Below, piece after piece: positions 6,403 through 34,682 of a stretch of DNA of 64,000 nucleotides. Position 1 is the first letter of the stretch. Each line of letters opens with the position of its first letter. The stretch lies in the IMG/VR virus record IMGVR_UViG_3300035034_001897, positions 1-64,000 of that record; one strand, 5' to 3'. Both the position numbers and the translations under genes were made by a program. A model generated the notes under the pieces. The model saw nothing but the letters and a program-made list of their open reading frames with translations, had not been told where the DNA came from and did not search any database. This DNA comes from a virus.

Positions 6403-6437
6403 TGTAAAGGAAACAATAACACATTAAAATCGGAAAT

Positions 6438-6773: not shown

Positions 6774-6848
6774 TCACTAAATCAAAATTATTATGGCAGT
6801 ATCGAACAATTACACGATCTTCTCAGATATAATTAAAATCGTAAGACT

Positions 6849-7721: not shown

Positions 7722-7738
7722 TTACAACGAACAGTAGT

Positions 7739-8155
7739 ATGGCACGAGTAAATAAATACAATATTCACTGGCAGGTCGTTCGAGTAGCAGCTAAGAATGA
7801 AAAGGATATCGAGAAGAGAATTGATCAAGTGTTTGAATTCTTAATGGCCAACAAATCTAAGGAGAATTTTGAGAGAGTGAAGAAATGGTTAAGAATGTCA
7901 CCGCTTGGATTTAAAGATCAGCAAAAGAAGCAGTTATATGGTGAATCGCTCAGATACTTAACGTCAATTGAGAGTATGTTTACTCAAACAGATCGACAAT
8001 GTGATTTTACTCAGTACACCAAACAGCAGTTGCAAGCAGTATATAAAGATATTGCAAAACGCAAATATACATTTCAATCAAAAGGTGCACCTAAATCACA
8101 TAACGCATTTATCGATAAATTAACTCAATGCCTAGATAATTATGATACCAACTGA
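7739..8155 (+). CDS. Hypothetical protein
   Basis: ORF track. Confidence 0.6.
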   Translation: MARVNKYNIHWQVVRVAAKNEKDIEKRIDQVFEFLMANKSKENFERVKKWLRMSPLGFKDQQKKQLYGESLRYLTSIESMFTQTDRQCDFTQYTKQQLQAVYKDIAKRKYTFQSKGAPKSHNAFIDKLTQCLDNYDTN

Positions 8156-8309
8156 ACAACAAAGAGAAGATTTCAAGAAAGCAGCAGAGCCATTGATGAA
8201 ATATTTAGCTGAGAATCACCACCCACATATGGAGGCGATTGTTAGTGGTGGCAGAGCAGAACTGCTTGAAAGTAAGTGTGTTCACAATACAGACAAGTTT
8301 ATATTGTAG
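8142..8309 (+). CDS. Small phage protein (55 aa, ...AAEPLMKYLAENHHPH...), not in ORF track
   Basis: Translated by hand; PLMKYL..NHHPH pattern is familiar from small phage proteins. Confidence 0.55.
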   Translation: MIPTEQQREDFKKAAEPLMKYLAENHHPHMEAIVSGGRAELLESKCVHNTDKFIL

Positions 8310-8329
8310 ATTAACATAATCAAATCGTA

Positions 8330-8632
8330 ATGGCAAGTCAATTCACAGTACAAGCAAAAGTTACAATCGTTAATGAACTGCACCTAACTGGTGTAGGAAT
8401 TAATCGACTAATGTCAAACCCTACATATCAACCAGTTAAAGATGATATTATGGATCGCAACTTAGTTAAGAATTCTGACATATTGATTCTTAGAATGTCA
8501 ACACTATTCAAGAAGGCTTGGCCTTACAAGACATTTGTAACAACAGTTATGTCATTAAAAACAGATGGTAATGAAAAAGTGGATCGTAAAAACATTAAAG
8601 AGATGGTTAGGATTGACTGTAATGGATACTAA
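8330..8632 (+). CDS. Hypothetical protein
   Basis: ORF track; AATCGTA before ATG. Confidence 0.55.
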   Translation: MASQFTVQAKVTIVNELHLTGVGINRLMSNPTYQPVKDDIMDRNLVKNSDILILRMSTLFKKAWPYKTFVTTVMSLKTDGNEKVDRKNIKEMVRIDCNGY

Positions 8633-8909
8633 AATCGAGCGACAGGAAAGTAGAATACAAGACCTAGATAATCAAGTCAATTCACTAAATAGAATCAAAA
8701 GTCACATTGATGTAGGTGCTGATGTAGGATACAAAGGTAATGAGAGTTGGGCAGTGATTTGTATTAAAGGTAAACCTGAATCAGTTAGGTTCATTGATCT
8801 GAGAGGAGTTGATGAAAGGCAACTAGTGATGTTCTTGAGAGACTTCGAGAAAAGAAATATGACACTAGACCTACCACCAATGCTGACAAGCTTAAAACAC
8901 AGATTCTAA
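8565..8909 (+). CDS. Hypothetical coiled-coil protein
   Basis: ORF track. Confidence 0.55.
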   Translation: MVMKKWIVKTLKRWLGLTVMDTKIERQESRIQDLDNQVNSLNRIKSHIDVGADVGYKGNESWAVICIKGKPESVRFIDLRGVDERQLVMFLRDFEKRNMTLDLPPMLTSLKHRF

Positions 8910-11666: not shown

Positions 11667-12008
11667 ATGAAAAAGATTGAAATATTCGCATTAATTAATC
11701 TATTCGCAGATCATTGTAAGTATGGAGTTGATTTAGATAAACTACTCAAAGACATTCAGAAGCTTCAAGATAAGAAGTTGTCAGAAAAGGAAATGAATGT
11801 ATTGGCTAGCAAATTAAAACTTCATCCAATACTCAGTCAGCTTACTATTCATTTATCGTATGTAAGTGAAGAGAATAAGAAGGATCAGAAATCTCGTTAC
11901 GAAATCGTATTAGATGATGAAGGTCAAGGTGTAGTTGAGGACAATATGATTTGGGTGCATACTTTAGTGTACGACCTAATATCGCATTTAAAGTATGGTG
12001 TAAAATAA
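11667..12008 (+). CDS. Hypothetical protein
   Basis: ORF track. Confidence 0.6.
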   Translation: MKKIEIFALINLFADHCKYGVDLDKLLKDIQKLQDKKLSEKEMNVLASKLKLHPILSQLTIHLSYVSEENKKDQKSRYEIVLDDEGQGVVEDNMIWVHTLVYDLISHLKYGVK

Positions 12009-12029
12009 ATTAAATTATTTTCGATTAAA

Positions 12030-12062
12030 TGTTGTCAGAAAGATATAAAGGTACTACCTTTA
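12030..12062 (+). promoter_or_regulatory. Conserved early promoter, copy 3 (upstream of small ORF and RNA array)
   Basis: TGTTG-TCAGAAAGATATAAAGGTAC-TACCTTTA. Confidence 0.75.
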
Positions 12063-12108
12063 TATCATAAGGAAATAGTAATAGTACAACATTTAAAAAT
12101 CGGAAATT

Positions 12109-12225
12109 ATGACACCAACACAAGTAGAAATCGCAACAGCAGTAACGATAGCAGTAGTATTAATCGTAATTTTCATCAAGTTCGGAGGACTGAGCGGTGG
12201 AGCACGAAACGCAATATTCAGATAA
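12109..12225 (+). CDS. 38 aa single-TM peptide (MTPTQVEIATAVTIAVVLIVIFIKFGG...), not in ORF track
   Basis: Follows the promoter and AATCGGAAATT-ATG motif as in the other early units. Confidence 0.65.
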   Translation: MTPTQVEIATAVTIAVVLIVIFIKFGGLSGGARNAIFR

Positions 12226-12349
12226 CATTTAAGATAGGTTACCAATCATAGTGTAGAGTCTTCTCAACCTAAAAGCACGTCTGCAAATTAGCAGAAAGAG
12301 AATCGCTAGGAGTGATTCAGAGAGGTACAGCAAACAAAAGTTCATTGAC

Positions 12350-12507
12350 ATATTGAAGTGAGAGAATGATCAAATAGGCAGTAGTCAATCTCGTACTATC
12401 TTATAGTACCAGACATTATGACAGAGCCATCGAAAGAATAGATCACTCATCTTGCGACTGGGAACGATGCGCTCGCAAGGTGTACTCTGAATCTTTCACT
12501 TCAATAT
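12350..12507 (+). ncRNA. Structured RNA module of unknown family
   Basis: 16 bp closing stem 12350-12365/12492-12507 (one G-U); inner stems 12393-12409 and 12448-12457/12473-12482. Confidence 0.65.
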
Positions 12508-12518
12508 AACTTAAACTA

Positions 12519-12581
12519 CCCTACGTGTAAATGCAATAATCTCCTCTTGCCAGGATCAAAGATTTACAGTTCTTTAAGGGG
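12519..12581 (+). ncRNA. Structured RNA module
   Basis: CCCT/AGGG and TGTAAAT (12526-32)/ATTTACA (12562-68) nested stems. Confidence 0.4.
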
Positions 12582-12607
12582 CGTGCAGATAAATGTGAGT
12601 CTGTAAC

Positions 12608-12685
12608 AAACACACTAGTGAGAGCCTTCGAGCCAATTTTCATTGGGAAGCAGTATCTAGCGAACGTATAACGGCTAGTGTGTTT
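12608..12685 (+). ncRNA. Structured RNA module
   Basis: 12 bp closing stem AAACACACTAGT/GCTAGTGTGTTT with inner CTTC-CCAAT/ATTGG-GAAG hairpin. Confidence 0.55.
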
Positions 12686-12692
12686 TAAAATA

Positions 12693-12768
12693 CAAGGTTT
12701 AGATCGTGGACACCTAATCAGTAGAATCGTGGCGTAACCTGAGTGAAATTAGATCTTATTAAACTTTG
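12693..12768 (+). ncRNA. Structured RNA module
   Basis: CAAGGTTTA/TAAACTTTG plus GATC/GATC stacked stems. Confidence 0.45.
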
Positions 12769-12997
12769 GTGATTCTTAGTGGAAAAGTGAAAGTAGTAGC
12801 TGAAAACCTCCGTTTCGAAAAGACGCTTGTGAAAGAATGTCCTGCTTACAATAGATTGCTGTGTGAGAACTTCAATTGGATTGAGATAGAAACGAAAGTA
12901 TTGAAGAAGTCTGTCTATCATCACTGACAGAGGGGTATAGAGTTAGCGTACGACAATAACTCTATATGCGACCGAAAAATCGATGATGTGGAATAAT

Positions 12998-13068
12998 ATG
13001 TGTGTAGCTCAGTAGGTAGAGCGCTGGTTAATACTTAGCGTCAGTGGTTCGATCCCACTCCACATTCA
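12998..13068 (+). tRNA. Atypical tRNA or tRNA-like element (apparent anticodon AAT, Ile)
   Basis: TAGCTCAGTAGGTAGAGC D arm and AGTGG-TTCGATC-CCACT T arm are canonical; anticodon arm GCTGG-TTAATAC-TTAGC; bulged acceptor stem, short core, no encoded CCA. Confidence 0.6.
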
Positions 13069-13073
13069 AATGA

Positions 13074-13211
13074 GGCATCGTTATGCAAAACTATTGTGAA
13101 GTTCCGTGATAAGTATCTTGAGGGTTGAGTGCACATACCGATAATAGAGAAAGTGGAACAGAACTGTAAGAAAGGAACAGTCTTTCAGTTCGTTGAAAGT
13201 AGAACGATGCT
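13074..13211 (+). ncRNA. Structured RNA module
   Basis: 9 bp closing stem GGCATCGTT/AACGATGCT; inner GTTCC/GGAAC and GAACTG/CAGTTC stems. Confidence 0.55.
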
Positions 13212-13226
13212 AAAGAATTGCTTTAT

Positions 13227-13306
13227 AGAGTGGCGTAATCAACTCTTGCAGTGGTGTAGGTAGGGAAGGAGATGTTTCCTCAATTAAATTCCCTAACTTC
13301 ACGCCA
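13227..13306 (+). ncRNA. Structured RNA module or 5' leader
   Basis: TGGTGT/ACGCCA and TAGGGAA/TTCCCTA nested stems; AGAGT/ACTCT hairpin. Confidence 0.4.
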
Positions 13307-13318
13307 AACAATAATATT

Positions 13319-14271: not shown

Positions 14272-15459
14272 ATGAACTTAGACGATCAAATTAGAAATAG
14301 CATTACACAAAGACGTGATGTCATTGCAGGTAACATAGTTAAAGGTAAACCATCTATGCCAATTGGAACCATTTCAAATGGTCGTAAAAAGATAGCAGAA
14401 GGTCAGTGGAGAGATGTTGTTGATGGAAACAAAAAGCCTAAACAAAACAAAGAGAAGATTAAACTCAGTGCAAAAGTGCTTGCATTAAATGAGAAACATC
14501 AACTCAGTCGATTGCCAATAGATATGCCTCATAATGAAGTGATCATCAATAAAGGTGAAGCGAAAAGTAATTGGATTCTCAAATGGATTGATCCTAAAAC
14601 ACAGAAGGCAGTTACAGCATATAGTAAAGCATTTCTCAAGAAGAATGCACAAGACAAATGGAAGCGTATAGAAAACGTATCTAAGAAAGATATCAGTGCA
14701 ATCAAGATTGGTGCAGACAAATTGATAGTAGGTAGTAATGCTGCTGAACAACAAAGTGGTGCCATAGTAAGCATCATCAGTCAAACTGGGTTGAGACCTG
14801 GAAGTAGAAGTGGTTTCAACAGCACACAAAACAGAGGAGTAAGTACACTCGCTAAAAAGAATATCAAGATTGAGGGAAGTAAAATCACTTTTGAATTCAA
14901 AGGTAAATCGTACAAGAACAACACTGCTGAGATAAATGATAGTGTATTAGCTAACTATCTCAGTGAAAGAATGAGTAAGGTTAAAGGAGAAGACTCCTTC
15001 ATATTCAATACTACAATTAACAAGGTAAGAGATGACTTTAAAGATAGTATCACACCAAATGATTCTATCAAACTCAAAGATATGCGAACATACATAGCAA
15101 CTGACATTGCGAGAGATATGTTAATGCACAATAAATTTGAAGTGCCTCAAAAAGGTGCAAAGAAAGCAATACAAGGTAAGTTGATGGAAGTATTTAAAGC
15201 TGTAAGTAATCAGCTGAACAATAGTCCTACAATGGCTAAAACAAGCTATATTCATCCTAACGTAATCAATGAATGGCTAGAAGGTTTAGGTGTGAAAGAA
15301 GCAGATATGTTTATGATGAAAGCTGTCAATTACACTGAGGCATTAAAAGCAATGAAACTTAGAAGAGACCCTGACAATATTGAGGGGGACGATAACGAAG
15401 ATTTTGACGATATTGATGAATATAATCTACCAGATTGGTGGGACCCAACATTACAATAA
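14272..15459 (+). CDS. DNA topoisomerase IB (bacterial/poxvirus type) with shared N-terminal leader
   Basis: Catalytic residues in GLRPG, FKGK, KDMRT and SYIHP. Confidence 0.88.
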   Translation: MNLDDQIRNSITQRRDVIAGNIVKGKPSMPIGTISNGRKKIAEGQWRDVVDGNKKPKQNKEKIKLSAKVLALNEKHQLSRLPIDMPHNEVIINKGEAKSNWILKWIDPKTQKAVTAYSKAFLKKNAQDKWKRIENVSKKDISAIKIGADKLIVGSNAAEQQSGAIVSIISQTGLRPGSRSGFNSTQNRGVSTLAKKNIKIEGSKITFEFKGKSYKNNTAEINDSVLANYLSERMSKVKGEDSFIFNTTINKVRDDFKDSITPNDSIKLKDMRTYIATDIARDMLMHNKFEVPQKGAKKAIQGKLMEVFKAVSNQLNNSPTMAKTSYIHPNVINEWLEGLGVKEADMFMMKAVNYTEALKAMKLRRDPDNIEGDDNEDFDDIDEYNLPDWWDPTLQ

Positions 15460-15461
15460 CT

Positions 15462-15917
15462 ATGGATTTAGAAGAGCAAATTAGATCAAGAAGACGTGAA
15501 CAAGCTGCACAAATTGCACAATCATTAGGTGTAGATTTGATTAAAGGTAAGGCTGCTGATGAAGGTGAAGAAAGAGAGTGGGGTGGTAAGAAATATAAGA
15601 AAACTAGTGGTAAATGGATACCAGTTACTGATGGAAAAGATAAAAAGAAGGATGATGACCCGAAGAATTCATCTAAAAAGTCAGAGGATCCTAAATCAGA
15701 TGGTAAAGCAAAACCTAGTGCAGGTGAAGGTGTTGATAAGCACGAAATAGCACAACTTACTGCATTGAAAGCTACAATGGAATCTAATCCAGAAAAAGCA
15801 TATGAAATCTTCCAATCACTCAGTCCAGAAGCGCAACAAGCTGTTCCTCAAGATGTGGTTAACAAATTGGTTGAAGGTAGTCATAGTGAAGGTGAAGATG
15901 AGGCTGAAGGTGTTTGA
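15462..15917 (+). CDS. Leader-bearing charged protein (putative internal head protein), possibly N-terminal part of a split gene
   Basis: Start ATG 15462 (MDLEEQIRSRR...DLIKGK) matches the leader of the neighbouring genes. Confidence 0.7.
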   Translation: MDLEEQIRSRRREQAAQIAQSLGVDLIKGKAADEGEEREWGGKKYKKTSGKWIPVTDGKDKKKDDDPKNSSKKSEDPKSDGKAKPSAGEGVDKHEIAQLTALKATMESNPEKAYEIFQSLSPEAQQAVPQDVVNKLVEGSHSEGEDEAEGV

Positions 15918-16947
15918 GGATGACGATCAAGAGTCTTTTGATCAAGCAGCTTATGATAAGGCTATTGAATCTAAAGATACTAATGCAGTTATTGAGCAAG
16001 CAGTTAAGTTGAAGGATGAAGAATTGCAAGAGAAAATTGACATACATTATCAAATGGCCAGTGCAGGAGCAACTGGTGGTCACACAAAGTTAGTTAATAT
16101 CTTAGGTAAAATAAAAGAAGCGAGATTAGAAGGTTTAAATAATGTAAACGATTCTTACTCAAAAGAGCAGATTCACAGTGAAATCGATAGTCAGTTAGAA
16201 AACTTCTTTGAAGACACTTCAAATATAGATGTTGAAGGATTAAAAGAAGAGGTTGAAAAAAGATTTCAAGAAGAAGATAAAAAAGAAAAGGCAACTAGTG
16301 ACAGAGATATGCAAGACGTAGTGTCAGCAATCTTAACAGATATGGTTGATGAGCAGAGTGAAGATGTAAAGAAAAAACAAGAAAATTCTCTAAGTCAGTG
16401 GAATGATGAATTAGATCCTGATGACGCTTTTTTTGATATCAAAAATCAAGTGAGAGAAGATTATGGAATAGACGAGCTTGATGAGGAAGGTGAGGAAGAA
16501 AATGAAGACGATATAATGAGAGAAGCTAATGATATATTTAGAGTCCGATTCGGATTTGATAATTATCAAGACGCTATATCTGCGATGGAAAGTAAGATGG
16601 AAAGTAAGAGTGAAAGTTCAAATAAAACTTATGATGGCATTAGAGAATGGGTAGGAGACTATAACGACGCTCAAGTAGAAAATGTAATCGAAGGCTTTAA
16701 TGAATCAGGATTTACTCAAAAGAATCTTGAGATAGCTCAAGGAAGGTCGTCAGAAGAACATATGAATAGAGTAGGAGAGCGAGCAGAATCTCTTGCAAAA
16801 AAAATCGTAGCAAACCAAAAAAATCCAATGGATCAAGATGAGGTAGCTGAAATTGTAGAAGGTATGATTGAATCAAAGTTCAAGATTACAGATTGGGATA
16901 ATCAAAAAAACATTAAAAAATCATTAGACATCTTATTACAATCATAA
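15910..16947 (+). CDS. Very acidic protein; +1 frame continuation of the previous ORF or separate GTG-start gene
   Basis: Protein-like D/E-rich sequence begins only at about 15910; ends IKKSLDILLQS. Confidence 0.65.
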   Translation: MFEDDDQESFDQAAYDKAIESKDTNAVIEQAVKLKDEELQEKIDIHYQMASAGATGGHTKLVNILGKIKEARLEGLNNVNDSYSKEQIHSEIDSQLENFFEDTSNIDVEGLKEEVEKRFQEEDKKEKATSDRDMQDVVSAILTDMVDEQSEDVKKKQENSLSQWNDELDPDDAFFDIKNQVREDYGIDELDEEGEEENEDDIMREANDIFRVRFGFDNYQDAISAMESKMESKSESSNKTYDGIREWVGDYNDAQVENVIEGFNESGFTQKNLEIAQGRSSEEHMNRVGERAESLAKKIVANQKNPMDQDEVAEIVEGMIESKFKITDWDNQKNIKKSLDILLQS

Positions 16948-16949
16948 TT

Positions 16950-18323
16950 ATGGAATTAGAAAATCAAATTGCACAGAAGAGAGAATTGCAAAAATCCAAC
17001 ATTAATCAAATGATGGGTATTCAACATTCACAACCTCAACCTATAGTTGAAGTTGATATGGATGATGTGCGAAAAGCCATAACTCAAATCCAATTAGGTA
17101 GAGAGGAAAATCTTGACATCATCAAAGGGAAAGTTCTTCCAGTTGGAACCATTCGTAAGAGAGGTGATCAAAACTGGATTAAGATTTCAGAAACTGGACC
17201 TAGTGCAAAGCAATGGAAATATCACTCTAAAGCAGGTAGTGAGAAAGGTCAGACAGCTAAGATTGAAGCAATGAGTGAGCCTGAAAAGATGGAGTCAAGA
17301 GCACTTGCAAGTAAACTATTCACACTTGTCAATAAGGTAGGTGGAGCAAAGACGTTTGGAGAGCAAATGAAACTTATTGAAGACGCTGGTATTACAGATC
17401 CTGAAAAAGTGGTGGAGCTTACTAACCAAAACTTATCTGACGTATTGAAATATATGGATGGCAAAGGAATGGAAAAGAAGCGTCAAGACTTCAACATCAA
17501 AGACGAATTAGCGAAGTTAGAGATGATGGATGCTATTAAGACTGGTTTTGATAAAATCGATGTAAAAGATCGTTGGGAATCATATAGAGTATTTCTTGAT
17601 CTAGTTGCAAATGGTACTGCAAAGAGTATGATCGCTTATGGTACGGGAGGTATAGGTAAAACGTACAATGCAACAAAAATATTCGCAAAAAACAACTTAG
17701 CTGAATATGATGGAGATGTTCACGAAGCTGGTGATAGTAATTATGATTACGTTAAAATCACTGGTAAAACATCACCAACTGCATTATATGCAGCATTATA
17801 CGAACATAATGGTAAGTGTTTGATGTTCGATGACTGTGATAGTGTGTTAGAGCACGATGATTCAATCAACATTCTCAAAGGAGCGTTAGATAGTGGTGGA
17901 GATAATTCAATCGCTTATGCATCAGGTAAGAAGCTTAAAACAGAAAAAGGTGAGACAGTTCCTCAACGATTTAAGTTTACTGGTAGGGTAGCATTCATTA
18001 CCAATCTTACAGCTGAAAAAATGCCTCAACCTCTTCGTAGTAGAGCATTTACAGCAGATTTAACAATGACGCCAGATGAGACGGTAACGATGATGGAGGA
18101 AATTATCCACAAAATAGAATTTCAAAATGCTCAAGGTGCAGCGATACACGTATCAACTGAAGATAGACAGTCAGCAATCGACTTTATTTCAGATAATGTG
18201 AACAATATCAATGTTCGAGATCTCAATTCAAGAACGCTTGGGCAAATAGCAATAATCAAAAAGAAATTGAGCAGCCATCCAACATTAGATTGGAAAACTG
18301 CTGCGATTGCAATGTTAACATAA
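16950..18323 (+). CDS. AAA+-like P-loop ATPase with shared N-terminal leader
   Basis: Walker A GTGGIGKT, Walker B LMFDDCD, FITN sensor, LRSR arginine-finger-like motif. Confidence 0.8.
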   Translation: MELENQIAQKRELQKSNINQMMGIQHSQPQPIVEVDMDDVRKAITQIQLGREENLDIIKGKVLPVGTIRKRGDQNWIKISETGPSAKQWKYHSKAGSEKGQTAKIEAMSEPEKMESRALASKLFTLVNKVGGAKTFGEQMKLIEDAGITDPEKVVELTNQNLSDVLKYMDGKGMEKKRQDFNIKDELAKLEMMDAIKTGFDKIDVKDRWESYRVFLDLVANGTAKSMIAYGTGGIGKTYNATKIFAKNNLAEYDGDVHEAGDSNYDYVKITGKTSPTALYAALYEHNGKCLMFDDCDSVLEHDDSINILKGALDSGGDNSIAYASGKKLKTEKGETVPQRFKFTGRVAFITNLTAEKMPQPLRSRAFTADLTMTPDETVTMMEEIIHKIEFQNAQGAAIHVSTEDRQSAIDFISDNVNNINVRDLNSRTLGQIAIIKKKLSSHPTLDWKTAAIAMLT

Positions 18324-18335
18324 AACACAAATATT

Positions 18336-18461
18336 ATGGCAAATGATTTAACACAAGTACCGTTAGATAAATTAGATTTGATTTATAAAACGCAGGAGTC
18401 AGGTCCTTTAAAGGATACGATTGCAAAGGAGATTCAGCATAGAGTAAATGCTGAAAAATAA
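18336..18461 (+). CDS. 41 aa protein (MANDLTQVP...), not in ORF track
   Basis: ATG in AT-rich context; fills the gap before the promoter. Confidence 0.45.
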   Translation: MANDLTQVPLDKLDLIYKTQESGPLKDTIAKEIQHRVNAEK

Positions 18462-18471
18462 CTACACTAAC

Positions 18472-18504
18472 TGTTGGTAGAAAGATATTAAAGTAGTATC
18501 TTTA
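18472..18504 (+). promoter_or_regulatory. Conserved early promoter, copy 4
   Basis: TGTTG-GTAGAAAGATATTAAAGTAG-TATCTTTA. Confidence 0.7.
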
Positions 18505-18524
18505 TGTAAAGAAGTAATAACACT

Positions 18525-18956
18525 ATGAGCTTAGAGCAACAAATACGTAACAGAAGAATCGCACAAGCAAATCAAATCACAGATATGTGTGGTGGAGATA
18601 ATCTCGTCAAAGGTAAAGAAATGCCAGTAGGTACTGTTAGTAATGGCAGAAAGAAAATGCCAAATGGAAGTTGGGTGCCAGTTAGTGAAGAAAAAAGCTC
18701 CTCTAAGACACCTCATCCTAAACTAAAAGATTCTCATAGATGGCAAGTAGAATCTCATATGAAGCAAGCAATTAAAGGAGATAAAAACATAACAATCTCT
18801 ATGATGGGAGGAGATGTGACTACTCATAAGAAAGGCGAAGAGTTTATGTATAGAGCAACAGTTCAGTCAAAAACTAGAGATAAGATGAGAGAATCTTTAG
18901 ATAGTGCAGGAGTAGACATCTTGAGTGCAAAGAAGTTCGGAGAATTATTTAATTAA
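18525..18956 (+). CDS. Leader-bearing basic protein (putative internal head protein)
   Basis: MSLEQQIRNRR...LVKGKEMPVGTVSNGRKK closely matches the topoisomerase N-terminus. Confidence 0.75.
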   Translation: MSLEQQIRNRRIAQANQITDMCGGDNLVKGKEMPVGTVSNGRKKMPNGSWVPVSEEKSSSKTPHPKLKDSHRWQVESHMKQAIKGDKNITISMMGGDVTTHKKGEEFMYRATVQSKTRDKMRESLDSAGVDILSAKKFGELFN

Positions 18957-18965
18957 CGAGTCGCA

Positions 18966-19496
18966 ATGGATCAAATCAAAAAATCAATCGAATCTATCTC
19001 AAGAGAAGATAACGCAGACATCCTAATTAAAGGAAAAGCCTTACCAATTGGAACGATTAAAAAGCGTCCTAACGGCAATTTCATTAAAACTGCAAGTGGA
19101 TGGAAATATCACTCGAAGCACGACAAGAATCAGAAAGCACAAGCTAGTGAGAAGAAAAGTGAAAGACCTCAAAGACACCAATTCAATTCTCAACAAGAAT
19201 ATGAAAAGAAGTTGTTATCTCACACTGGACCTGGAGGAGGAAATCAAGATAAAGGTAAATCTCCAGATGGAATTTCCGAGAGTATGCTTAAAAAAGTAAA
19301 TCTAGCGGATAACCATTTAGAAGGTAAAGTTTTTAATATAGGTAAAGGAGCTCGACTCAGAGTCGATAGTGTAAAAGGAGACATTGCTAAAATAACTAAA
19401 ATAGATAAGTTTAACAATACCTCAACACACGAGGTGTCTGTAAAAGACAATAGTGGAGAAGGAGGTTTATTTTCATATAAAGAAATTAAAAAATAA
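18966..19496 (+). CDS. Leader-bearing basic protein (putative internal head protein)
   Basis: IKKSIESISREDNADILIKGKALPIGTIKKR...WKYHSK parallels the ATPase N-terminus. Confidence 0.75.
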   Translation: MDQIKKSIESISREDNADILIKGKALPIGTIKKRPNGNFIKTASGWKYHSKHDKNQKAQASEKKSERPQRHQFNSQQEYEKKLLSHTGPGGGNQDKGKSPDGISESMLKKVNLADNHLEGKVFNIGKGARLRVDSVKGDIAKITKIDKFNNTSTHEVSVKDNSGEGGLFSYKEIKK

Positions 19497-19634: not shown

Positions 19635-20093
19635 ATGAAAAAGGTTACCACAAAAGATCTTGAGATTGCAGTATTGCAATACGATAAGCAAGCAGAGCTG
19701 AGAAGTCTGCGAACATCTCTTCCTTGGGAATGTGATGTGCTTAGTGTAACTAAAAGTGGTTATGCAACTGAATATGAGTTGAAGATTAGCAAGAGTGATT
19801 TCAAAGCTGATTTTAAAAAGCGTAAGCATAAAATGTTCAGTAAAGGTGAGGGAGGAATGGTGAGTAGGTTTTGGTTTGTAGTACCAAAAGATATGGTTGA
19901 CAAAAAAGACATTCCTCAATATGCAGGATTAATGTATTACGACCATAAAAGGAGAACAGTGCATCCAGTTAAATATCCGCAAAGATTAAAAGCTGGTAAA
20001 TTAGATAGCAAAACAATTCGTAGATTATATCGCTCAATGATGTATCGATTTCTACAACTTAATTTCAAAGGGTACAGAAAAGTAACCTTCTAA
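19635..20093 (+). CDS. PD-(D/E)XK nuclease, MmcB-like
   Basis: ECDVL...EYELKISKSDFKAD...FWFVVP. Confidence 0.7.
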   Translation: MKKVTTKDLEIAVLQYDKQAELRSLRTSLPWECDVLSVTKSGYATEYELKISKSDFKADFKKRKHKMFSKGEGGMVSRFWFVVPKDMVDKKDIPQYAGLMYYDHKRRTVHPVKYPQRLKAGKLDSKTIRRLYRSMMYRFLQLNFKGYRKVTF

Positions 20094-20104
20094 AAATCGT
20101 AAAA

Positions 20105-20584
20105 ATGAAAACAATAAAAGGAGATTTAATTCAGCTAGCATTACAAGGAGAATTTGATGCAATTGCACACGGATGTAATTGTCACAATATGATGGGTGCT
20201 GGAATAGCATTACAAATTAGAAAAGCATTTCCTGGTACATATCAAATAGATACGCAATACAGTCAGGTACAAGATGACTACAATAAGTTAGGTACTATTT
20301 CAGTATGTGACGTTGAGCAATATAACGACAAACAAGATCTCACTAAACAGACAGGATCGTTTACAGTTATAAACGCATACACTCAATTTGATGGAGGAAG
20401 GAATTTAGACTACGATGCATTGAAAATGTGTTTGAAGAAGATTAATCACTACTTTAAAGGAAAGAAAATTGGATTACCTCAAATAGGTTGCGGAATTGCA
20501 GGAGGTAATTGGAATATAGCAAAAAGATACATTGAGCAGTATTTAAGTGATTGTGATGTAACAATCGTTGAATATTCTCGTTAA
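20105..20584 (+). CDS. Macrodomain protein (ADP-ribose binding/hydrolase)
   Basis: IKGDL, HGCNC..MGAGIA, NAYTQ, LPQIGCGIAGG.W. Confidence 0.9.
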   Translation: MKTIKGDLIQLALQGEFDAIAHGCNCHNMMGAGIALQIRKAFPGTYQIDTQYSQVQDDYNKLGTISVCDVEQYNDKQDLTKQTGSFTVINAYTQFDGGRNLDYDALKMCLKKINHYFKGKKIGLPQIGCGIAGGNWNIAKRYIEQYLSDCDVTIVEYSR

Positions 20585-26933: not shown

Positions 26934-28649
26934 ATGTCATACTTAGATTATACCATTCCTACATCACAAGCATCATCATCACTCGACAGTGAACTACAGA
27001 GAATTCAAGTCGAGAAGGGTCAGATTGCTCAACGAGAATATAGAGCACTATCTCAAGCATTGTCATCAGACAATCCTAATGACATCATTAAAGCCAATAC
27101 TTATTGGGAAGATGTTCAAAACAGACAAGATAGTGGAGTCAAAACTAGACTAGTTGATCCTAATGAATGGACTCAAGGTGCTGGCTATAAACATAAAAGA
27201 TTTCAACTAGATTATAGTACATTGAGAAGGATGGTGTCAACTACTCCTATCATTAAAGCTATTGTAGGAACTAGACAGGCTCAAGTGAGTGCGTTTTCAA
27301 CTCCACAGAAGAGTAAGTATGAAACTGGATTCGTTATTCGTAAGAAAAGGGAGTTTTATACAGACGAAGAGCCTATTGTAACTCGAGAAGATAAGCAGAC
27401 TATTAATGAATTAACGAAATTCATTCTTAATGGTGGTGATGACGAAAATGCGTGGAATGGAGACACTTTTGATACGTTTCTTAAAAAACTAGCAAACGAC
27501 TCACTAACGTTAGATCAAGCGTGTTTTGAAATAGTTAGAAGTAATAAAGGTGAGCCAGTTGAATATCTAGCAGTAGATGGAGCGACAATAGTATTAGCAG
27601 ACACACATAACGATGAGCAAGAGGTTGTTGATAGAGAATATGATCACGCAGGAAATAAACGTAAAAGAGTAAGAGGCTATTTACCATCATACGTTCAAGT
27701 AATTGATTCAGTAATTCACAATGAATACTATCCTTGGGAAATGTGTATGGGAATTAGAAATTCTACTACAGATATCAGATCGAATGGGTATGGTAAAAGT
27801 GAAGTAGAGGAATTAGTTAGTATTATTACTTGGATGTTATATGGAGACACATATAACGGAAAATTTTTTAGTCAAGGTAGCAATCCAAAAGGAATGCTTA
27901 AAGTAGGTTCAGGAGTTAATAGAAACCGACTCGCAGAGTTTAGACAGCAATGGTTATCAATGGTAGCTGGAGTTCAGAATGCTTGGAAGGTTCCAATGGT
28001 TGAGGGAGATGTTGAATGGATTGATATGCAGAAAGGCAATCGAGATATGGAGTTCTCGGCGTGGCAAGAATACTTGATAAAGGTTGCGTGTGCAGTATTT
28101 AAGATCGCACCAGAAGAGGTTGGATTTAATATCGATAAGAGTGGAGGTCTTGGTGGAGAAAATGATAGCGATGTCAAAATTAGATATTCGAGAGATAAAG
28201 GATTGAAGCCAATGCTGAAATCATTTGAGTTCTGGATTAATAAGTGGTTAGTTGCTCCTAAAAATGCAGACTTTGAGTTTAAGTTTGTAGGATTAGATAC
28301 AGATAGTGAAGAGAAAGAGGTTGAACTACTCAATAAAAAAGTTGAGCATGGAATGGGTCTTAAAGAATATCGTCGTGCAATTGGATTGCCAGAAGATTTA
28401 GAAGAAGGAGACTTCCCACTTAACAATATATATGTTCAAATGCAAGGACAATTAGCAATGCAAGAGCAGAGTGAAGAAAATGGAGAATTCGTTGATCAAG
28501 ATCAGGCAAGTGAAGAAGATGATTTCTGGAACAGTATTGATATGGAAAAAGGTGTGCTTGATCAAATGAATCAATTGAAAGTGTATAAAGGCAACCCTAT
28601 GATGAAGGATGCATTAAATATGTTAATTGGAGATGGAGCAGCAAAATAA
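26934..28649 (+). CDS. Portal protein
   Basis: GYGKSEVE, FFSQGSNPKG, RDMEF, PEEVGF and DKGLKP motifs of SPO1/Twort-like portals; first gene of the head module. Confidence 0.9.
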   Translation: MSYLDYTIPTSQASSSLDSELQRIQVEKGQIAQREYRALSQALSSDNPNDIIKANTYWEDVQNRQDSGVKTRLVDPNEWTQGAGYKHKRFQLDYSTLRRMVSTTPIIKAIVGTRQAQVSAFSTPQKSKYETGFVIRKKREFYTDEEPIVTREDKQTINELTKFILNGGDDENAWNGDTFDTFLKKLANDSLTLDQACFEIVRSNKGEPVEYLAVDGATIVLADTHNDEQEVVDREYDHAGNKRKRVRGYLPSYVQVIDSVIHNEYYPWEMCMGIRNSTTDIRSNGYGKSEVEELVSIITWMLYGDTYNGKFFSQGSNPKGMLKVGSGVNRNRLAEFRQQWLSMVAGVQNAWKVPMVEGDVEWIDMQKGNRDMEFSAWQEYLIKVACAVFKIAPEEVGFNIDKSGGLGGENDSDVKIRYSRDKGLKPMLKSFEFWINKWLVAPKNADFEFKFVGLDTDSEEKEVELLNKKVEHGMGLKEYRRAIGLPEDLEEGDFPLNNIYVQMQGQLAMQEQSEENGEFVDQDQASEEDDFWNSIDMEKGVLDQMNQLKVYKGNPMMKDALNMLIGDGAAK

Positions 28650-29392: not shown

Positions 29393-29526
29393 TGACACAA
29401 AAAAAGAAAAAATACTTAGATCGACCGAGATTTCCAGTGATAAATGATTATGAGAATGATTTCAGAAAATCTTGGAAATTGTCAATGAAGATAGCTTTGA
29501 AAGAAATTGAAAATAAAATCAAATGA
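29392..29526 (+). CDS. 44 aa basic protein
   Basis: Likely start ATG 29392 (MTQKKKK), coupled to neighbours. Confidence 0.45.
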   Translation: MTQKKKKYLDRPRFPVINDYENDFRKSWKLSMKIALKEIENKIK

Positions 29527-30016
29527 TAGAAATTACAACATCAATTCACAAACGTCAGCAACAAATTCGTGCCAATATAGTGAAAGGATTAAAGACTCCT
29601 ACATTTAGTGGATTTAAGTTAGAGAACAAATACAACTATAAGGTTTACAGATTTCAATAGAGAATAAGCAAGGATCTACACGTAAATGGAAAGATGGAGA
29701 TAAAGAAGGTTCTACGTTAATGCACTATGATTATGGATATATTAGAAATACTGTAGGAAACGATAACGATCACGTTGACTGCTACATTAATTCAAAAAAT
29801 ATAGTTGATCAAGTCTTTGTTATTCATCAAAATAGACCTAAAACTGGTCAATTCGATGAAGATAAGGTAATGTTAGGTTTTGATAGTGCAGACGAAGCTA
29901 AGAGAGCTTATTTAACTCATTACGATAGCGAAAAATTCTTTGGATCGATGACTGAAATGACCCTCGATCAATTCAAAAGCAAAGCGTTAGGTAAAAAAAA
30001 TCGTAAAATTCAATAA
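29523..30016 (+). pseudogene. Inorganic-pyrophosphatase-like (InPase) domain protein with shared leader, interrupted by a frameshift at about 29640
   Basis: Frame 1: MIEITTSIHKRQQQIRANIVKG...YNY; -1 frame from 29642: GLQISIENKQGSTR...YDYGYI...DNDHVDCY...FDEDKVMLGF. Confidence 0.7.
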
Positions 30017-30981
30017 TGATACTTAGTCCAAATCAAATTACAGATTTACTGTCGATTATAGACAAATACACTTTGACGTTTGCAGCACACCATATAGGAG
30101 TGCAAGGAATGAATCAAGCTCAACTAAATTTACTGCAGCAATCAGGAGTGAATATATCTAAGATAGCAATTCAAACATCAAATATTAATCAAGCATTTAG
30201 GTTTGGAATTCTTAGCAGTGCGTTAGGAGATGCAAATGCTAAGAATATGAGTTACAGTCAACTCAAAGGATTTATTAGTAGTGGAAAGATGTTTAAGTTG
30301 TCAGCTATTGAAAGTGCAGCTCTACAAAATCTACAATATCAAACAGTAACGCAAGTAGTCAAATTTGGAGATAAGATTAAAAACGATATCATTGACAAGT
30401 TGGTGTACGCTGACAAGAAAAATAATGCAGTTAAGCACAGTAAGGTTGTTACAGATGCAGTCAACAACGCAATACAAGAAAGAAAAGGAGTGCAATCAGT
30501 AATTTCAGATATTGGTCACGAATTAGATAATTGGGATAGAGATTTTGGTAGAATAGCAGATTTTGTAATGCATACAGCATTTGAGGAAGGTAGAGCATTG
30601 AAAATTATGCAGACACAAGGAAATCAATCTTTAGTATATAAAGATGTGTACTTAGGAGCTTGTCCTCATTGCATAAAAAACTATCTTACTGGAGGAATTG
30701 GAAGTGCGCCTAAAATATTCACTATTCAACAAATAACAGCGAACGGGACTAATGTAGGGAAGAAAGTGAAAGATTGGTTGCCAGTATTAGGACCTCTTCA
30801 TCCTTGGTGTAGATGTACATTAATGCAAGTACCTAACCAATTCAATTTAATAGACTATAACAACGGCTTATGGTTATGGGACGGAAGACAGTTTATAAGA
30901 AATGCTGATAAATATCAGCGCAAAGTAAGGCGAAATAGTAAAGTAAAAGTAACTGTTAACGGAAAAACAACGGAAGTATGA
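30016..30981 (+). CDS. MuF/SPP1 gp7-like minor head protein
   Basis: ACPHC and PLHPWCRC motifs; located between portal and protease. Confidence 0.75.
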   Translation: MILSPNQITDLLSIIDKYTLTFAAHHIGVQGMNQAQLNLLQQSGVNISKIAIQTSNINQAFRFGILSSALGDANAKNMSYSQLKGFISSGKMFKLSAIESAALQNLQYQTVTQVVKFGDKIKNDIIDKLVYADKKNNAVKHSKVVTDAVNNAIQERKGVQSVISDIGHELDNWDRDFGRIADFVMHTAFEEGRALKIMQTQGNQSLVYKDVYLGACPHCIKNYLTGGIGSAPKIFTIQQITANGTNVGKKVKDWLPVLGPLHPWCRCTLMQVPNQFNLIDYNNGLWLWDGRQFIRNADKYQRKVRRNSKVKVTVNGKTTEV

Positions 30982-31227: not shown

Positions 31228-31512
31228 ATGAAAACATTTATTTTCGAAAACGCTGGAAAAACTTTAAAAGTAGCAATTAAATGCGATGTTTTCGCAACTA
31301 ATGCGCAACTACAAGAGCCAGGATTTGATACTCGATTTACAGCAATGACAGTAGAAGATAGCGATGAAGCAATTCAAGCTGGACTGAACATTAATGAGAT
31401 GGAGCAAAATCTTCAAGGATTGAAAGCAAAAGCTACAGAATTAGGATGGTCTCTTTCAGTAGCTGACATCAATGAAGAAGGTGGAACAATTGAATTAGTT
31501 GCAGCAGTATAA
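31228..31512 (+). CDS. Hypothetical head-module protein
   Basis: Own GTTG..TATATTTA promoter-like element; coupled to the protease. Confidence 0.6.
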   Translation: MKTFIFENAGKTLKVAIKCDVFATNAQLQEPGFDTRFTAMTVEDSDEAIQAGLNINEMEQNLQGLKAKATELGWSLSVADINEEGGTIELVAAV

Positions 31513-33092
31513 TGAAACAGCAATTCCAAACACATATACCTCTTGAGTTAATCAAAGGAAAGGATCAAGAAGGCAACCCTATTATGAAAATGAGAGGTGT
31601 TGCTTCTACTCCATCCGAAGATGCAGATAAGGAATTTTTAGAGCCTAAAGGATTTGACTCTGAATATTTCCTCAAGCACGGATTTATGAATTGGAATCAT
31701 CAAGCAAACAACGATCCGTCAGCAATTGTTGGCAAGCCTACTGGAGCAAGTGTTGATGGAGAAGATTACGTAATAGACTTCAATCTATTTCCAGATAGCA
31801 AAAAAGCTCAACAAATCTATGAATTGCAAAAAGTTCTCGAATCTCAAGGACTTGCGTTAGGTTTATCTATCGAGGGTAAAGTCCTTGAGAGAGATCCTTT
31901 AAATAATAGTAGAGTAACTAAAGCTAAAATAACTGGATGTGCTATCACGCCTAATCCAAAGAATCAAGATACAGTAACTCAAATAATTAAGGGTCACGAT
32001 TATGATGCATTAATTAGCGATTCTGACGAAGAGGACGAAGAGGATGAAGATGGTGATAAGAAAGAGAAGGCTTTATCTGCAGCATCAGCTAGTGGACAAG
32101 CAATAACAAAAGAGTCTCTTGATGGAGATTTAAAAGACATTACACAAAGTAAAAAATTAACCAAAGGTGAGGTTATTGAGAAAATTTCACTAGATTTACC
32201 ATCCCTAAACGAGGATCAAGTTAAATCTATTTATAATTTAACACATAAAATTCAAAAAGCAATCGATATGGATACTGCAACAAAACAAAAAGAAACTCCA
32301 ACAATTACTCCAGAAACGTTAAAGAAAGCGTACGATATACTAAATTTAGTATCTCCAGAAAAAGCGTTAGAAAAGAGTGAAGCTGGCAATAATGATTTGT
32401 CAGGTAATGACGGACTATCTCTTGAGGAAATCACAGCAAAGAAGAATGAACTGGAAAAATCTCTTGCAGCAGTTACTGAGCTTGAGAAAGCGTGTAAGAC
32501 TGAAAAAATGAATGACGACGACGATATGAAGAAGTCGGAAGATGATGATAAGAAAGATGATGATGATAAGAAAGATGATGATGCAGACGACGACAAAAAA
32601 GACGACAAAAAAGACGACAAAATGGAAAAAGGTCTTGGTGATACTGTAATAGGGCAGAACAATGACGAATTAATCAAGTCACTTACTGCAGTATTTAAAG
32701 GAGAGCTTGGTCAAATAGAAGCTGGATCGAATGAAAAATTCAAAGCTGTTGGTCAATTAATGAAGTCTTTCACTGGAACAGTAGAAGCTATTGACGAGCG
32801 ATTATCTGCTTTTGAAAATCAGACGAAAGGACGTAAGTCTGTTACAACTCAAAAGCAACACGTAATTGAAAAGTCGTTTGCAAGCGATCAACAAGACGTT
32901 CAAGGTGACCAAAAACAATATTTGAATTTGACAGCACACAAAACACAGATTTCAAAAGCTCTTACAGACAGTTTTCTAGCAAGCGAGAATAAAGATGAGA
33001 CTTTAAGAAAAGGAATACTATTATATGATCAATCTGGACAAGCAAATCCAACAATTCAAGCGAAAGCGAGAGAATTAGGATTGATCAAGTAA
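31512..33092 (+). CDS. Prohead protease fused to scaffold
   Basis: GVAST..D...E, NWNH, GLSIEG, AIT.NP.N protease motifs, then an acidic low-complexity helical region. Confidence 0.88.
   Translation: MKQQFQTHIPLELIKGKDQEGNPIMKMRGVASTPSEDADKEFLEPKGFDSEYFLKHGFMNWNHQANNDPSAIVGKPTGASVDGEDYVIDFNLFPDSKKAQQIYELQKVLESQGLALGLSIEGKVLERDPLNNSRVTKAKITGCAITPNPKNQDTVTQIIKGHDYDALISDSDEEDEEDEDGDKKEKALSAASASGQAITKESLDGDLKDITQSKKLTKGEVIEKISLDLPSLNEDQVKSIYNLTHKIQKAIDMDTATKQKETPTITPETLKKAYDILNLVSPEKALEKSEAGNNDLSGNDGLSLEEITAKKNELEKSLAAVTELEKACKTEKMNDDDDMKKSEDDDKKDDDDKKDDDADDDKKDDKKDDKMEKGLGDTVIGQNNDELIKSLTAVFKGELGQIEAGSNEKFKAVGQLMKSFTGTVEAIDERLSAFENQTKGRKSVTTQKQHVIEKSFASDQQDVQGDQKQYLNLTAHKTQISKALTDSFLASENKDETLRKGILLYDQSGQANPTIQAKARELGLIK
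32511..32625 (+). repeat. Low-complexity DDDKK coding repeat in scaffold region
   Basis: GATGATGATAAGAAA and GACGACAAAAAA tandem units. Confidence 0.7.
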
Positions 33093-33152: not shown

Positions 33153-34682
33153 ATGGAAAACTTAACAGTACCCTTAGCGTCATATTCGCACGGAAGTGGT
33201 TTCGGAGCAGATGCAAGTCAGCAAGCAAATTTGAGCGCGTCTCAACTAGCTGAATTGTCAAAAGCCCTTGAAGCTGGTCAGTTGCAAGGTGGAGCAATGG
33301 GTAACCCTGCGCAATCAAACGGTGGTGCACTAAAGACAGAGTCTTTAGAAAGCTCACTTAAACTAATTACTTTCCGTGAAGCGGATATTCGTTTTTGGAA
33401 GAGATTCCCAAAAACAGCTGCTTATAATACGGTAGAAGAGTACAACCAACACACGAGCTATGGTACTGATCGTGGAGGATTCAATAACGAAGGTGAATTG
33501 CCGGAAGAAGAAGACTCTAGCTATGTACGTAAGGCAGAACACGTGAAGTATTTAGGTGTAACTAAATCAGTTACCCACCCAATGCAATTGGTGAATACTA
33601 ACGTTGGAGATATCATTCAGAAGGAAACTACTAATGGTATTATGTGGATCTTACGTAAAGCTGATAGAGCTTTATTTTATGGAGATGAGAAAGTTGTTTC
33701 TCAAGAATGGAATGGTTTATATGCTCAGCATTTAAACAATGATCAGTTTGCTAACTTAGAAGAGTATTACAGCTCTCCATTAGTAATTGACCTTAGAGGT
33801 TCTGCTCTTACAGAAGCTAACATTGAGAGTGGAGCTCAAGTACTTTTAACGAAGTTTGCTCAACCTAACTTAATGGTTGCACCTCCAGTAGTATTTAGTG
33901 AATTTGCTAAAGGATTCTACGCACGTCAACGTATTGCAACGGGAGGAAGTGTAAATGGTAATGTTACTGGCGCTACAATGGGTCAACACATTAGTAACTT
34001 CCAATCTATGTACGGATTGATTGACTTTGAGTATGACATCTTTGCTGCGAAAAACCCAGGGAAACTTTCTACAGTAGGAGGTACATCACCAAAAGCACCT
34101 ACAGCACCTACAGTTGGAGCAACTCCAATAGCAGTTGTAAATGCAGACGGACAGTCTCGTTTCAATGACGGAACTGGTGATTATTACTACGCAGTTACTG
34201 CTATAAACCGATATGGTGAATCAGCAATGACTCAGTTAGGAGGATCTGTTACTGTTGCAAACGCAGATGATAGTGTAGATTTACAGTTTACTGCGACACC
34301 AGGACCTTACACTCCAAATGCTTATGTAGTTTATCGATCTAAAAAGAATCCTTCTGGATCTTTTGCAATGACAACGATGTATCCTATCGCTACAGTACCA
34401 GTTGCTGGAACAGATGCTAAGAGAGGTTCTCTTGCAAATGGAGTTGATGGTGGTGCAGCAGGAATTGTTAGAGATAGAAATAGAATTCTACCTGATACTC
34501 AAGAGGCTCTTCTTTTACAAGGAGATACAGATGTGATCGAGTTCAAGCAACTTGCACCTCTTATGAAAATGCCACTTGCGAAGTTGAGTCCAGCTGACCG
34601 ATTTATGGTCTTGCTTTATGGTACTCCAATTGTGTACGCACCATCTAAGATGATACGTTACATCAATATTGGTAAAGCGTAA
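33153..34682 (+). CDS. Major capsid protein
   Basis: GGALKTESLE and EGELPEEEDS motifs of SPO1/Twort-like capsids; follows protease-scaffold; strong terminator after. Confidence 0.9.
   Translation: MENLTVPLASYSHGSGFGADASQQANLSASQLAELSKALEAGQLQGGAMGNPAQSNGGALKTESLESSLKLITFREADIRFWKRFPKTAAYNTVEEYNQHTSYGTDRGGFNNEGELPEEEDSSYVRKAEHVKYLGVTKSVTHPMQLVNTNVGDIIQKETTNGIMWILRKADRALFYGDEKVVSQEWNGLYAQHLNNDQFANLEEYYSSPLVIDLRGSALTEANIESGAQVLLTKFAQPNLMVAPPVVFSEFAKGFYARQRIATGGSVNGNVTGATMGQHISNFQSMYGLIDFEYDIFAAKNPGKLSTVGGTSPKAPTAPTVGATPIAVVNADGQSRFNDGTGDYYYAVTAINRYGESAMTQLGGSVTVANADDSVDLQFTATPGPYTPNAYVVYRSKKNPSGSFAMTTMYPIATVPVAGTDAKRGSLANGVDGGAAGIVRDRNRILPDTQEALLLQGDTDVIEFKQLAPLMKMPLAKLSPADRFMVLLYGTPIVYAPSKMIRYINIGKA

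Follow-up and report, generated by a model that had tools for sequence, protein, structure and literature searches.

A modular protein tag on unrelated enzymes of an uncultured lake-water phage, a candidate signal for loading cargo into the phage head

The window analyzed here is a stretch of 64,000 nucleotides from IMG/VR virus record IMGVR_UViG_3300035034_001897. It comprises the first 64 kb of a genome that is represented by a single contig of 78,946 bp. The source is an uncultured phage, the DNA of which is present in lake-water metagenome runs. The G+C content is about 35%, and nearly all genes are on the + strand. Proteins from the window occur only in metagenome contigs (JGI/ENA), and a megablast search with the region against deposited phages gave no match. 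Our subject is a short protein module, referred to as the tag, which is shared by several otherwise unrelated proteins of this phage and which may address them to the phage head.

Five of the tagged genes form a cluster between positions 14272 and 19496 (Table 1). A sequence-only reading of this DNA had claimed that their products begin with the same two-part module, a helical part 1 and a basic part 2, and continue with unrelated C-terminal bodies. The five open reading frames (ORFs) and the N-termini given for them were confirmed. For each leader, a profile was built from the other four and compared to all six reading frames of the complete 78.9-kb genome. The omitted leader was retrieved with E-values between 3e-6 and 4.5e-14, and the best unrelated frame had E > 0.2. 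Judged by these profile searches, the leaders are truly homologous to one another. The K-G-K, G, and K columns are invariant in the alignment of the five leaders, and the W position is conserved. The bodies are indeed unrelated, with one Topoisom_I domain, one phrog_1250 ATPase, and three proteins without a family match; none of the tagged proteins from the window has more than one recognizable domain. All five ORFs are present as claimed, but the genome has seven tagged genes, the additional ones being 29523-30016 and, beyond the window, 66755-67197.

In the topoisomerase, the tag consists of a helix (amino acids (aa) 1-20), the predicted site NIVK24↓G25 (an arrow marks the known or predicted position of cleavage), and a basic hairpin (aa 25-47). 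The score against PF01028 is 59 bits (gathering cutoff 23.7). Active-site motifs assigned from the sequence are R (GLRPGSR), K (FKGKS), R (DMRTY), and Y (AKTSYIHP), with Asn at the position of the poxvirus His. The ATPase has a long double leader, which is composed of the part 1 helix, a second helix, the predicted site DIIK59↓G60, and a hairpin of the WKYHSK variant. Homologs of the ATPase body occur in the Bacteroides phage DAC series, in Chryseobacterium phage MA9V-3, and in T4-like phages, and cover only aa ~172-457; with the whole ATPase as query, no related locus was found in IMG/VR. The protein encoded from 18966 had been described as devoid of the part 1 helix. This helix is missing, but a helix of the second type is present (KKSIESI...DILIKGK), which is also found in the leader of the ATPase. 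The gene at 29523 codes for the leader MIEITTSIHKRQQQIRANIVK21↓G22, with the predicted site at its end, and for an InPase domain (29642-30016; PF18823, E 1.3e-38). It is the top sub-threshold match of the full leader profile, and its leader is supported by a helix-only profile made mostly from foreign relatives (E 2e-3, genome-wide).

Table 1. Tagged genes, head genes, and promoter-like motif. Coordinates refer to the window unless indicated otherwise; "leave-one-out" refers to the search with a profile from the other four leaders.
Feature	Coordinates	Strand	Evidence or context
Tagged type IB topoisomerase	14272..15459	+	PF01028 E 5.8e-16, aa 123-334; leave-one-out E 9.9e-10
Tagged acidic protein, 495 aa, predicted site DLIK28↓G29	15462..16947	+	intact form P0002; leave-one-out E 8.7e-6
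Tagged P-loop ATPase	16950..18323	+	phrog_1250 E 2e-37; leave-one-out E 7.2e-10
Promoter-like motif AA(A/G)GTAGTATCTTTATGTAAAG	18490..18511	+	5′ of 18525
Tagged protein, 143 aa, predicted site NLVK29↓G30	18525..18956	+	promoter-like motif 5′ at 18490-18511; leave-one-out E 4.5e-14
Tagged protein, 176 aa, predicted site ILIK22↓G23, WKYHSK hairpin variant	18966..19496	+	leave-one-out E 3.2e-6
Portal protein	26934..28649	+	PF04860 E 2e-25; phrog_12 E 1e-40
Leader and InPase domain, no hairpin	29523..30016	+	adjoins MuF-like gene
MuF-like, putative minor head protein, divergent C..C/H.C.C motif	30016..30981	+	downstream of tagged genes in relatives
Prohead protease fused to very acidic scaffold	31512..33092	+	phrog_1028 E 1e-32, aa 4-157
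Major capsid protein, Herelleviridae-like (SPO1/A511/phage K type)	33153..34682	+	phrog_752 E 3e-83
Tagged gene outside the window	66755-67197 (genome)		full leader profile E 3e-8

When the leader profile was searched against 1.84 billion representative proteins, 206 proteins were retrieved at E≤1e-3, of which 21 had E≤1e-10. Copy numbers and column statistics were obtained by re-scanning the best 150 of the 206 proteins. Among 205 tag copies, 110 have their start in the N-terminal 70 residues, and the other 95 are internal; two or three copies were found in 47 proteins. The first half of the consensus reads D-[LI]-x-K(98%)-[G 72/A 18/S 8]-[K 78/R 15]-x-x-P-[IV]-G(100%)-T (numbers are percentages), and the second half continues with [VI]-S-N-G-x-K-K-V-A-E-G-K-W-V-[PK]-V. 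The tag is often preceded by an amphipathic helix, which has the form M-D-L-E-x-x-I-R-x-R-R..Q...I..SF at N-termini and the form K-A-x-D-x-L in front of internal copies. Variants of the hairpin that follow [LI]-x-K-G-K are G-E-x-R-x-W-x-G-K-K-Y-K-K..G-K-W and ...F-I-K-T..G-W-K-Y-H-S-K. A third variant, G-x-Y-x-D...N-R-K-x-G-x-V-G-x-x-Y, occurs in the metagenomic protein P0004, where it follows LIKGK, and in Bacteroides phage DAC16. Three genes of DAC16 (6061-6906, 7734-8798, and 11872-12816, including that for the ATPase homolog) have the common N-terminal ...K-G-x-Y-x-D-x-x-x-N-R-K-L-G-R-V-G-x-x-Y. The DAC16-type tag is probably a sister form of the hairpin.

Three elements can be distinguished in the tag: an optional amphipathic helix, the linear motif h-x-K (h, hydrophobic residue) followed by G/A/S, and a basic β-hairpin of ~25 residues with a net charge of about +6. 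According to the aligned copies, the constant unit is part 2 plus the K-[GAS] site, and the part 1 helix is optional and often shortened to 5-10 residues. In the AlphaFold2 (AF2) model of the 18525 protein, a helix is predicted for residues 3-21 (pLDDT 95) and a hairpin for residues 37-52 (pLDDT 92-96), with KGK in coil. Modeling of the module alone gave the same three parts, with a three-element hairpin at pLDDT 90-96. For ten leaders, no relevant Pfam match was obtained even at E≤10. No PHROG match covers the leader, and a full-text literature search for strings of the tag motif returned no paper. As far as these searches show, the tag has no Pfam entry and no description in the literature searched. 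When a leader from the window and the two-module protein P0010 were compared by tblastn to 50,697 deposited phage genomes, no module was found; deposited phages have only variant tag forms, in Chryseobacterium phage MA9V-3 and in the Bacteroides phage DAC series.

The domains that accompany the tag were surveyed with Pfam in 79 module-bearing proteins of at least 330 aa. InPase was found five times, NUDIX, SAM lyase, and DUF3293 four times each, DUF5661 three times, and ART-PolyVal, Topoisom_I, and LPD1 twice each, in addition to Zeta toxin, ParB_N, and others. Several domains each are present in the relatives P0006, P0021, and P0036. In ten multi-module proteins, the modules are located between Pfam domains and never inside them, as exemplified by the layout NUDIX (19-125), module (447), SAM lyase (570-669), and module (697). 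The picture of a modular leader is therefore retained in one respect, since a portable module is attached to unrelated enzymes, and has to be revised in another, since the helix is optional. Because copies of the unit are also found internally and recur between domains, the tag is more than a leader at the N-terminus and looks like a processing joint, which would leave a hairpin on each released piece.

For polyvalent proteins, Iyer et al. (2017, PMC5512222) predicted packaging into the phage head and subsequent injection. Their domain repertoire is the same as found here for the tag partners (InPase, ART-PolyVal, NUDIX, ParB, Zeta toxin, and LPD1), and the tagged genes share the portal/MuF gene setting of polyvalent proteins. 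By definition, polyvalent proteins have at least two effector domains, whereas the tagged proteins from the window fall outside this definition and are mostly single-domain "solo" forms. The word "linker" is absent from that paper, and the passages on cleavage that were considered (12 of 14) describe no such module; autoproteolysis by MPTase is invoked, unlike the joint for a prohead protease considered here (PMC5512222). The tag is a candidate for a processing and loading element that is not part of that description.

Gene neighborhoods were analyzed for 35 loci, which were obtained by scanning IMG/VR with the module alignment. Tagged genes occur in runs of one to seven (seven in L010, five in L033, and four each in L024 and L007). 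Among 126 neighboring proteins surveyed with PHROG, portal proteins are most common (13, from the same families as the portal from the window), followed by phrog_752 capsid proteins (9). A search with phmmer identified a portal homolog in 19 of the 35 loci. Mapping with the head proteins from the window revealed a recurrent gene order, namely portal, tagged genes, MuF-like, protease, and capsid; placement between the portal gene and those for MuF-like protein, protease, or capsid holds in most loci that have flanks reaching the head genes. The closest relative, L024, has the order portal, a 1079-aa two-module protein, a tagged 157-aa protein, a tagged homolog of the ATPase, a tagged 172-aa protein, MuF-like, protease, and capsid. 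A tagged type IB topoisomerase is encoded in four loci, directly after the portal gene in L013, L019, and L022, and additionally in L032. In Chryseobacterium phage MA9V-3 (PV245944), the ATPase homolog carries a variant tag and is encoded between portal and MuF, and this phage has two additional tagged genes.

The sequence-only reading would have been undermined if leader profiles had retrieved mainly cellular or non-virion proteins. One genome per species was checked for 185,579 prokaryote species, and only two loci were found, so that the reading is not refuted in this way. InPase and type IB topoisomerase homologs are encoded beside the module at both loci, and one of them (L040) also holds a portal homolog (E 1.7e-47); both are thus probably viral contigs binned into metagenome-assembled genomes. 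Overall, these searches support a viral nature of the tag carriers.

The head genes of the phage itself are listed in Table 1. The capsid protein matches SPO1 gp6.1 (PDB 9vel) with E 1.5e-76. Its nearest cultured relatives are from the Bacteroides phage DAC series and Chryseobacterium phage MA9V-3, which indicates a Bacteroidota host. The prohead protease was assigned by its match to phrog_1028 only; PDB sequence searches and Pfam gave no match. The scaffold part of this protein has extreme poly-Asp/Glu tracts, SDSDEEDEEDEDGD and DDDDMKKSEDDDKKDDDDKKDDDADDDKKDDKKDD. For the MuF-like protein, the copy from the window has no Pfam or PHROG match. Two of its seven homologs match PF04233 at E 6e-4, which is below gathering confidence, and its place after the portal gene is consistent with a minor head protein of the Phage Mu F/SPP1 gp7 type. 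The MuF-like gene is found 3′ of the tagged genes in L001, L009, L024, L028, L029, and L034. We propose that the head lineage associated with the tag is characterized by three components, namely a capsid of the Herelleviridae-like type, a portal of the HK97 type, and a prohead protease that is specific for Lys and is fused to an acidic scaffold.

Processing of A511-type capsid proteins at a Lys-Ser bond, which the sequence-only reading had given as established, is borne out by the GenBank entry of A511, where the mature protein (mat_peptide) starts at Ser24, after EDALK (ALK23↓S24). Likewise, the mature chain of phage 812 (9row, 439 aa) corresponds to the 463-aa precursor without its first 24 residues, which end with EDVVK↓S (VVK24↓S25). 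At the corresponding N-terminal region, the capsid protein from the window and nine relatives from IMG/VR have an invariant L-x-K-A-L, with ELSK37↓A38 predicted as the site in the phage analyzed here, and SPO1 has ALNK↓ALEAG. The tag's h-x-K-[G/A/S], as compared at the sequence level, has a form that matches this capsid maturation site. The spread of G, A, and S after the Lys fits better with a protease preference for a small P1′ residue than with a structural glycine.

A recurrence of the motif in the protease-scaffold, capsid, and portal proteins had also been claimed. For the capsid (LSK37↓A38), this was upheld, as it was for the protease-scaffold protein, where the motif occurs as LIKG (13-16), IIKG (158-161), and VFKG (394-397). 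The first two of these are candidate sites for self-processing, before and after the catalytic domain (LELIK15↓GKDQ and QIIK160↓GHDYD). Candidate sites at equivalent places are LVK↓AGEG and IIK↓SHNF in L024, and SLEK↓SHKG and TFMK↓SWTTGHG in A511 gp84. In the portal, the motif occurs as VYKG (550-553), but its sequence is not kept in the closest relative, L024. Nevertheless, most related portals have K-[S/G/A] ~15-30 residues from the C-terminus, a motif of low information content that is too short for statistics. As a separate observation, A511 gp84 (L038, 2046-2840) continues past the protease domain with TFMK↓SWTTGHGTTPDTQVNAGALRRE, a near copy of the mature capsid N-terminus, ALK↓SFTTGYGITPDTQTDAGALRRE. 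The tail of the A511 protease thus appears to mimic the N-arm of the capsid protein.

Three tag-bearing genes are affected by frame-breaking deletions. The ORF of 151 aa at 15462-15917, which the sequence-only reading counted as a gene, turned out to be part of a longer one. A 2-nt deletion after 15905 in the copy from the window splits the 495-aa gene into ORFs 15462-15917 and 15802-16947, which are joined in P0002 and in independently assembled contigs of the lake-metagenome runs X1 and X2, where an extra GC follows 15905. A 1-nt deletion after 29639 breaks the leader-InPase gene; the C at this position is present in run X1 and in a loose end of X3. In the 66755 gene, one more base is needed between GCT and AAGG to read ...IA?GKWVPV. 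The deletions (GC, C, and probably C, at 15905, 29639, and genome position 66880) are all directly 5′ of (G)AAGG, and all fall in tag-bearing genes. At 29639, run X2 has the shifted allele; at 15905, it has both. Because shifted alleles thus occur in X2 as well, the deletions look like population polymorphisms and not like errors of this assembly. Programmed frameshifting at the three ...AAGG sites was considered and rejected, given that the directions of the shift differ, that no slippery heptamer is present, and that in-frame alleles exist in independent contigs. A systematic loss of C before AAGG upon assembly was also rejected, with CAAGG being observed 76 times (90 expected).

The promoter-like motif 5′ of 18525 has near-identical 22-nt copies at 6388-6409 (5′ of 6438-6773) and at genome position 66716-66737 (5′ of 66755). 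Exact 19-mers of the motif occur twice in the window (0.09 expected). The motif includes a Bacteroidota-like TAnnTTT(A/G) element, and weaker copies are found at genome positions 72361 and 77056. The gene 6438-6773 codes for an acidic 111-aa protein that starts with MKTVEQLNQLFKGKS, and its LFKGK (aa 10-14) resembles the tag site. A 933-aa protein from the tail region (43914-46715) has an N-terminal phage-lysozyme domain (PF00959, E 1e-30) and starts with MALGIDGQRLIKGYD, which includes LIKG; this could point to a further processed virion protein or could be a chance occurrence of the motif. Neither 6438-6773 nor the N-terminus of 43914-46715 was recovered by the leader profile or the helix profile. 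The tagged cluster is preceded by a stretch without ORFs (12230-13310), and is directly followed (19635-20584) by genes for a phrog_2776/5429 protein and a macro-domain protein (PF01661; phrog_335, E 1e-55), neither of which is tagged.

Because the tag recurs in hundreds of uncultured phages beside the portal gene, it probably marks proteins that are loaded into the capsid. We consider it somewhat better than an even bet that it is a portable cargo tag that is processed by the head protease, in a variant of the loading of T4 and phiKZ-type phages. According to this model, tagged proteins would co-assemble into the procapsid. The prohead protease would then cut after the Lys of the tag, by which the helix would be removed or, in multi-domain relatives, the domains would be separated. 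A released enzyme would keep the basic hairpin at its new N-terminus, and this may retain the cargo, at first by contact with the poly-acidic scaffold and later with the packaged DNA. In this way, the cargo would stay in the head and leave with the genome. The cargo predicted for this phage consists of the type IB topoisomerase, the P-loop ATPase, the InPase, the acidic 495-aa protein, and three small proteins.

A more specific version of this model takes the tag as a joint with two functions, where the protease splits polyvalent proteins inside the capsid and the hairpin ferries the pieces from scaffold to DNA. In the polyvalent relatives, every domain has a separate joint in front of it, and cleavage would free each of them together with a hairpin, which suggests that the hairpin works after cleavage. 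With poly-Asp/Glu tracts in the scaffold and a charge of about +6 on the hairpin, a hand-over from scaffold to DNA is an attractive hypothesis. We put this version forward tentatively and would rate its chances at clearly less than even.

Several points weigh against loading coupled to processing. We infer packaging and cleavage of the tagged proteins wholly from comparison. The motif [ILVMF][ILVMFY]KG is short and occurs ~17 times in the proteome, with ~11 expected. Only the InPase gene adjoins portal and MuF in this genome, the main cluster being 7.5 kb upstream of the portal gene. In many relatives, the Lys is preceded by just 5-10 residues, which is not enough for a targeting helix. For the ATPase homologs of T4-like phages, we know of no report as virion proteins. 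A fold search with the module alone yielded no match at Z≥2, and with the whole 18525 model, the best matches (up to Z 4.2) were all on the C-terminal helices; such an outcome is expected for so small a unit.

In addition, K-G-K could be the first strand or turn of a domain that is not cleaved. The module might then be a docking domain for the portal, the MuF-like protein, the scaffold, or the capsid interior, and the cargo would be packaged unprocessed, for which N4 vRNAP and SPP1 gp7 are precedents among internal proteins (PMC5512222). The synteny with portal and MuF fits docking equally well, and hairpin and K-G-K are conserved as a single block. On the other hand, P0004 has [LI]-[LI]-K-G-K before three different motifs, which suggests an independent element, and K-G-K is in coil in the AF2 model. 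Docking also leaves unexplained why G, A, or S may follow an invariant Lys, and why the site matches that of the capsid. We regard an uncleaved docking domain as unlikely, though as the most probable of the alternatives.

The basic character of the hairpin would also be compatible with a DNA- or nucleoid-binding domain on intracellular, non-virion proteins that act on DNA. Topoisomerase IB, ParB, HNH, and ATPase partners would fit, as would the location of the cluster outside the head operon in this genome. However, NUDIX, SAM lyase, ART, InPase, and Zeta toxin need no DNA binding, most loci have the tagged genes between portal and MuF/protease/capsid, and the InPase gene, which adjoins the MuF-like gene, has helix and site but no hairpin. 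This makes an intracellular DNA-binding role improbable in our view. That the N-terminus is a by-product of a duplicated cassette of promoter and 5′ coding sequence, with no function at the protein level, is suggested by the near-identical promoter-like motif and very similar leader of 18525 and 66755, but we consider it highly implausible because this promoter is common to only two of the seven tagged genes, internal copies are far from any promoter, and the protein sequence is conserved across distant phages (25-50% identity, with invariant G and W).

To our knowledge, little has been reported on how cargo is chosen for the capsid in tailed phages outside of T4 and the phiKZ group. For polyvalent proteins, predictions of packaging have mostly relied on fusion with, or linkage to, MuF and portal genes. 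If the tag is processed and loaded as proposed, it would provide a sequence rule by which injected anti-defense and takeover proteins can be predicted in metagenomic phages, and it would explain how individual enzymes could be released from large polyvalent proteins. At the expense of adding ~35 residues to each, a phage could load and inject an exchangeable set of enzymes, which in the present case would include a type IB topoisomerase and an ATPase. Such a cargo-loading code would be general and engineerable and would apply to a large group of uncultured phages (aquatic and Bacteroidota); it would also offer a small handle by which foreign proteins can be placed in capsids. These aspects are relevant for research on phage assembly and anti-defense. 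A further prediction is the presence of a type IB topoisomerase in the virions of some phages, as is the case for poxviruses.

The type IB topoisomerase of poxviruses is carried in the virion and is a small enzyme like that encoded here; in the present case, the carrier is a tailed phage, and we infer packaging from tag and synteny. In phage T4, the internal proteins IPI-III and Alt share an N-terminal peptide, which is cleaved by the prohead protease gp21; these cargo proteins are either basic or enzymes, and they enter the host together with the DNA (for background, see PMC9958956 and PMC9026906). The capsid-targeting sequence (CTS) of T4 is, as found here for seven genes, a short common N-terminal peptide on unrelated cargo, and it ends in a consensus site of the head protease that is also used by the capsid, for which we observe a match at the sequence level. 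CTS and gp21 have no sequence homology to the tag and the protease described here, and the T4 site is L/I-x-E↓, in contrast to h-x-K↓G/A/S in the tag. Our protease is from a different PHROG family and is fused to the scaffold; the basic hairpin is predicted to stay on the cargo, and the unit is also internal and repeated. In phiKZ-like phages and SPN3US, many head-internal proteins are processed at one motif, and propeptides are thought to aid incorporation (PMC5694885, PMC10052503). Processing there takes place at S/A/G-x-E↓, the phage analyzed here has other capsid and protease lineages, and no shared hairpin module is known to have been described for those phages. A parallel with respect to the site is capsid maturation in Herelleviridae (A511 Cps, major capsid protein of phage K/812), where a homologous phrog_752 capsid protein is processed at the same type of site, h-h-K↓ followed by a small residue.

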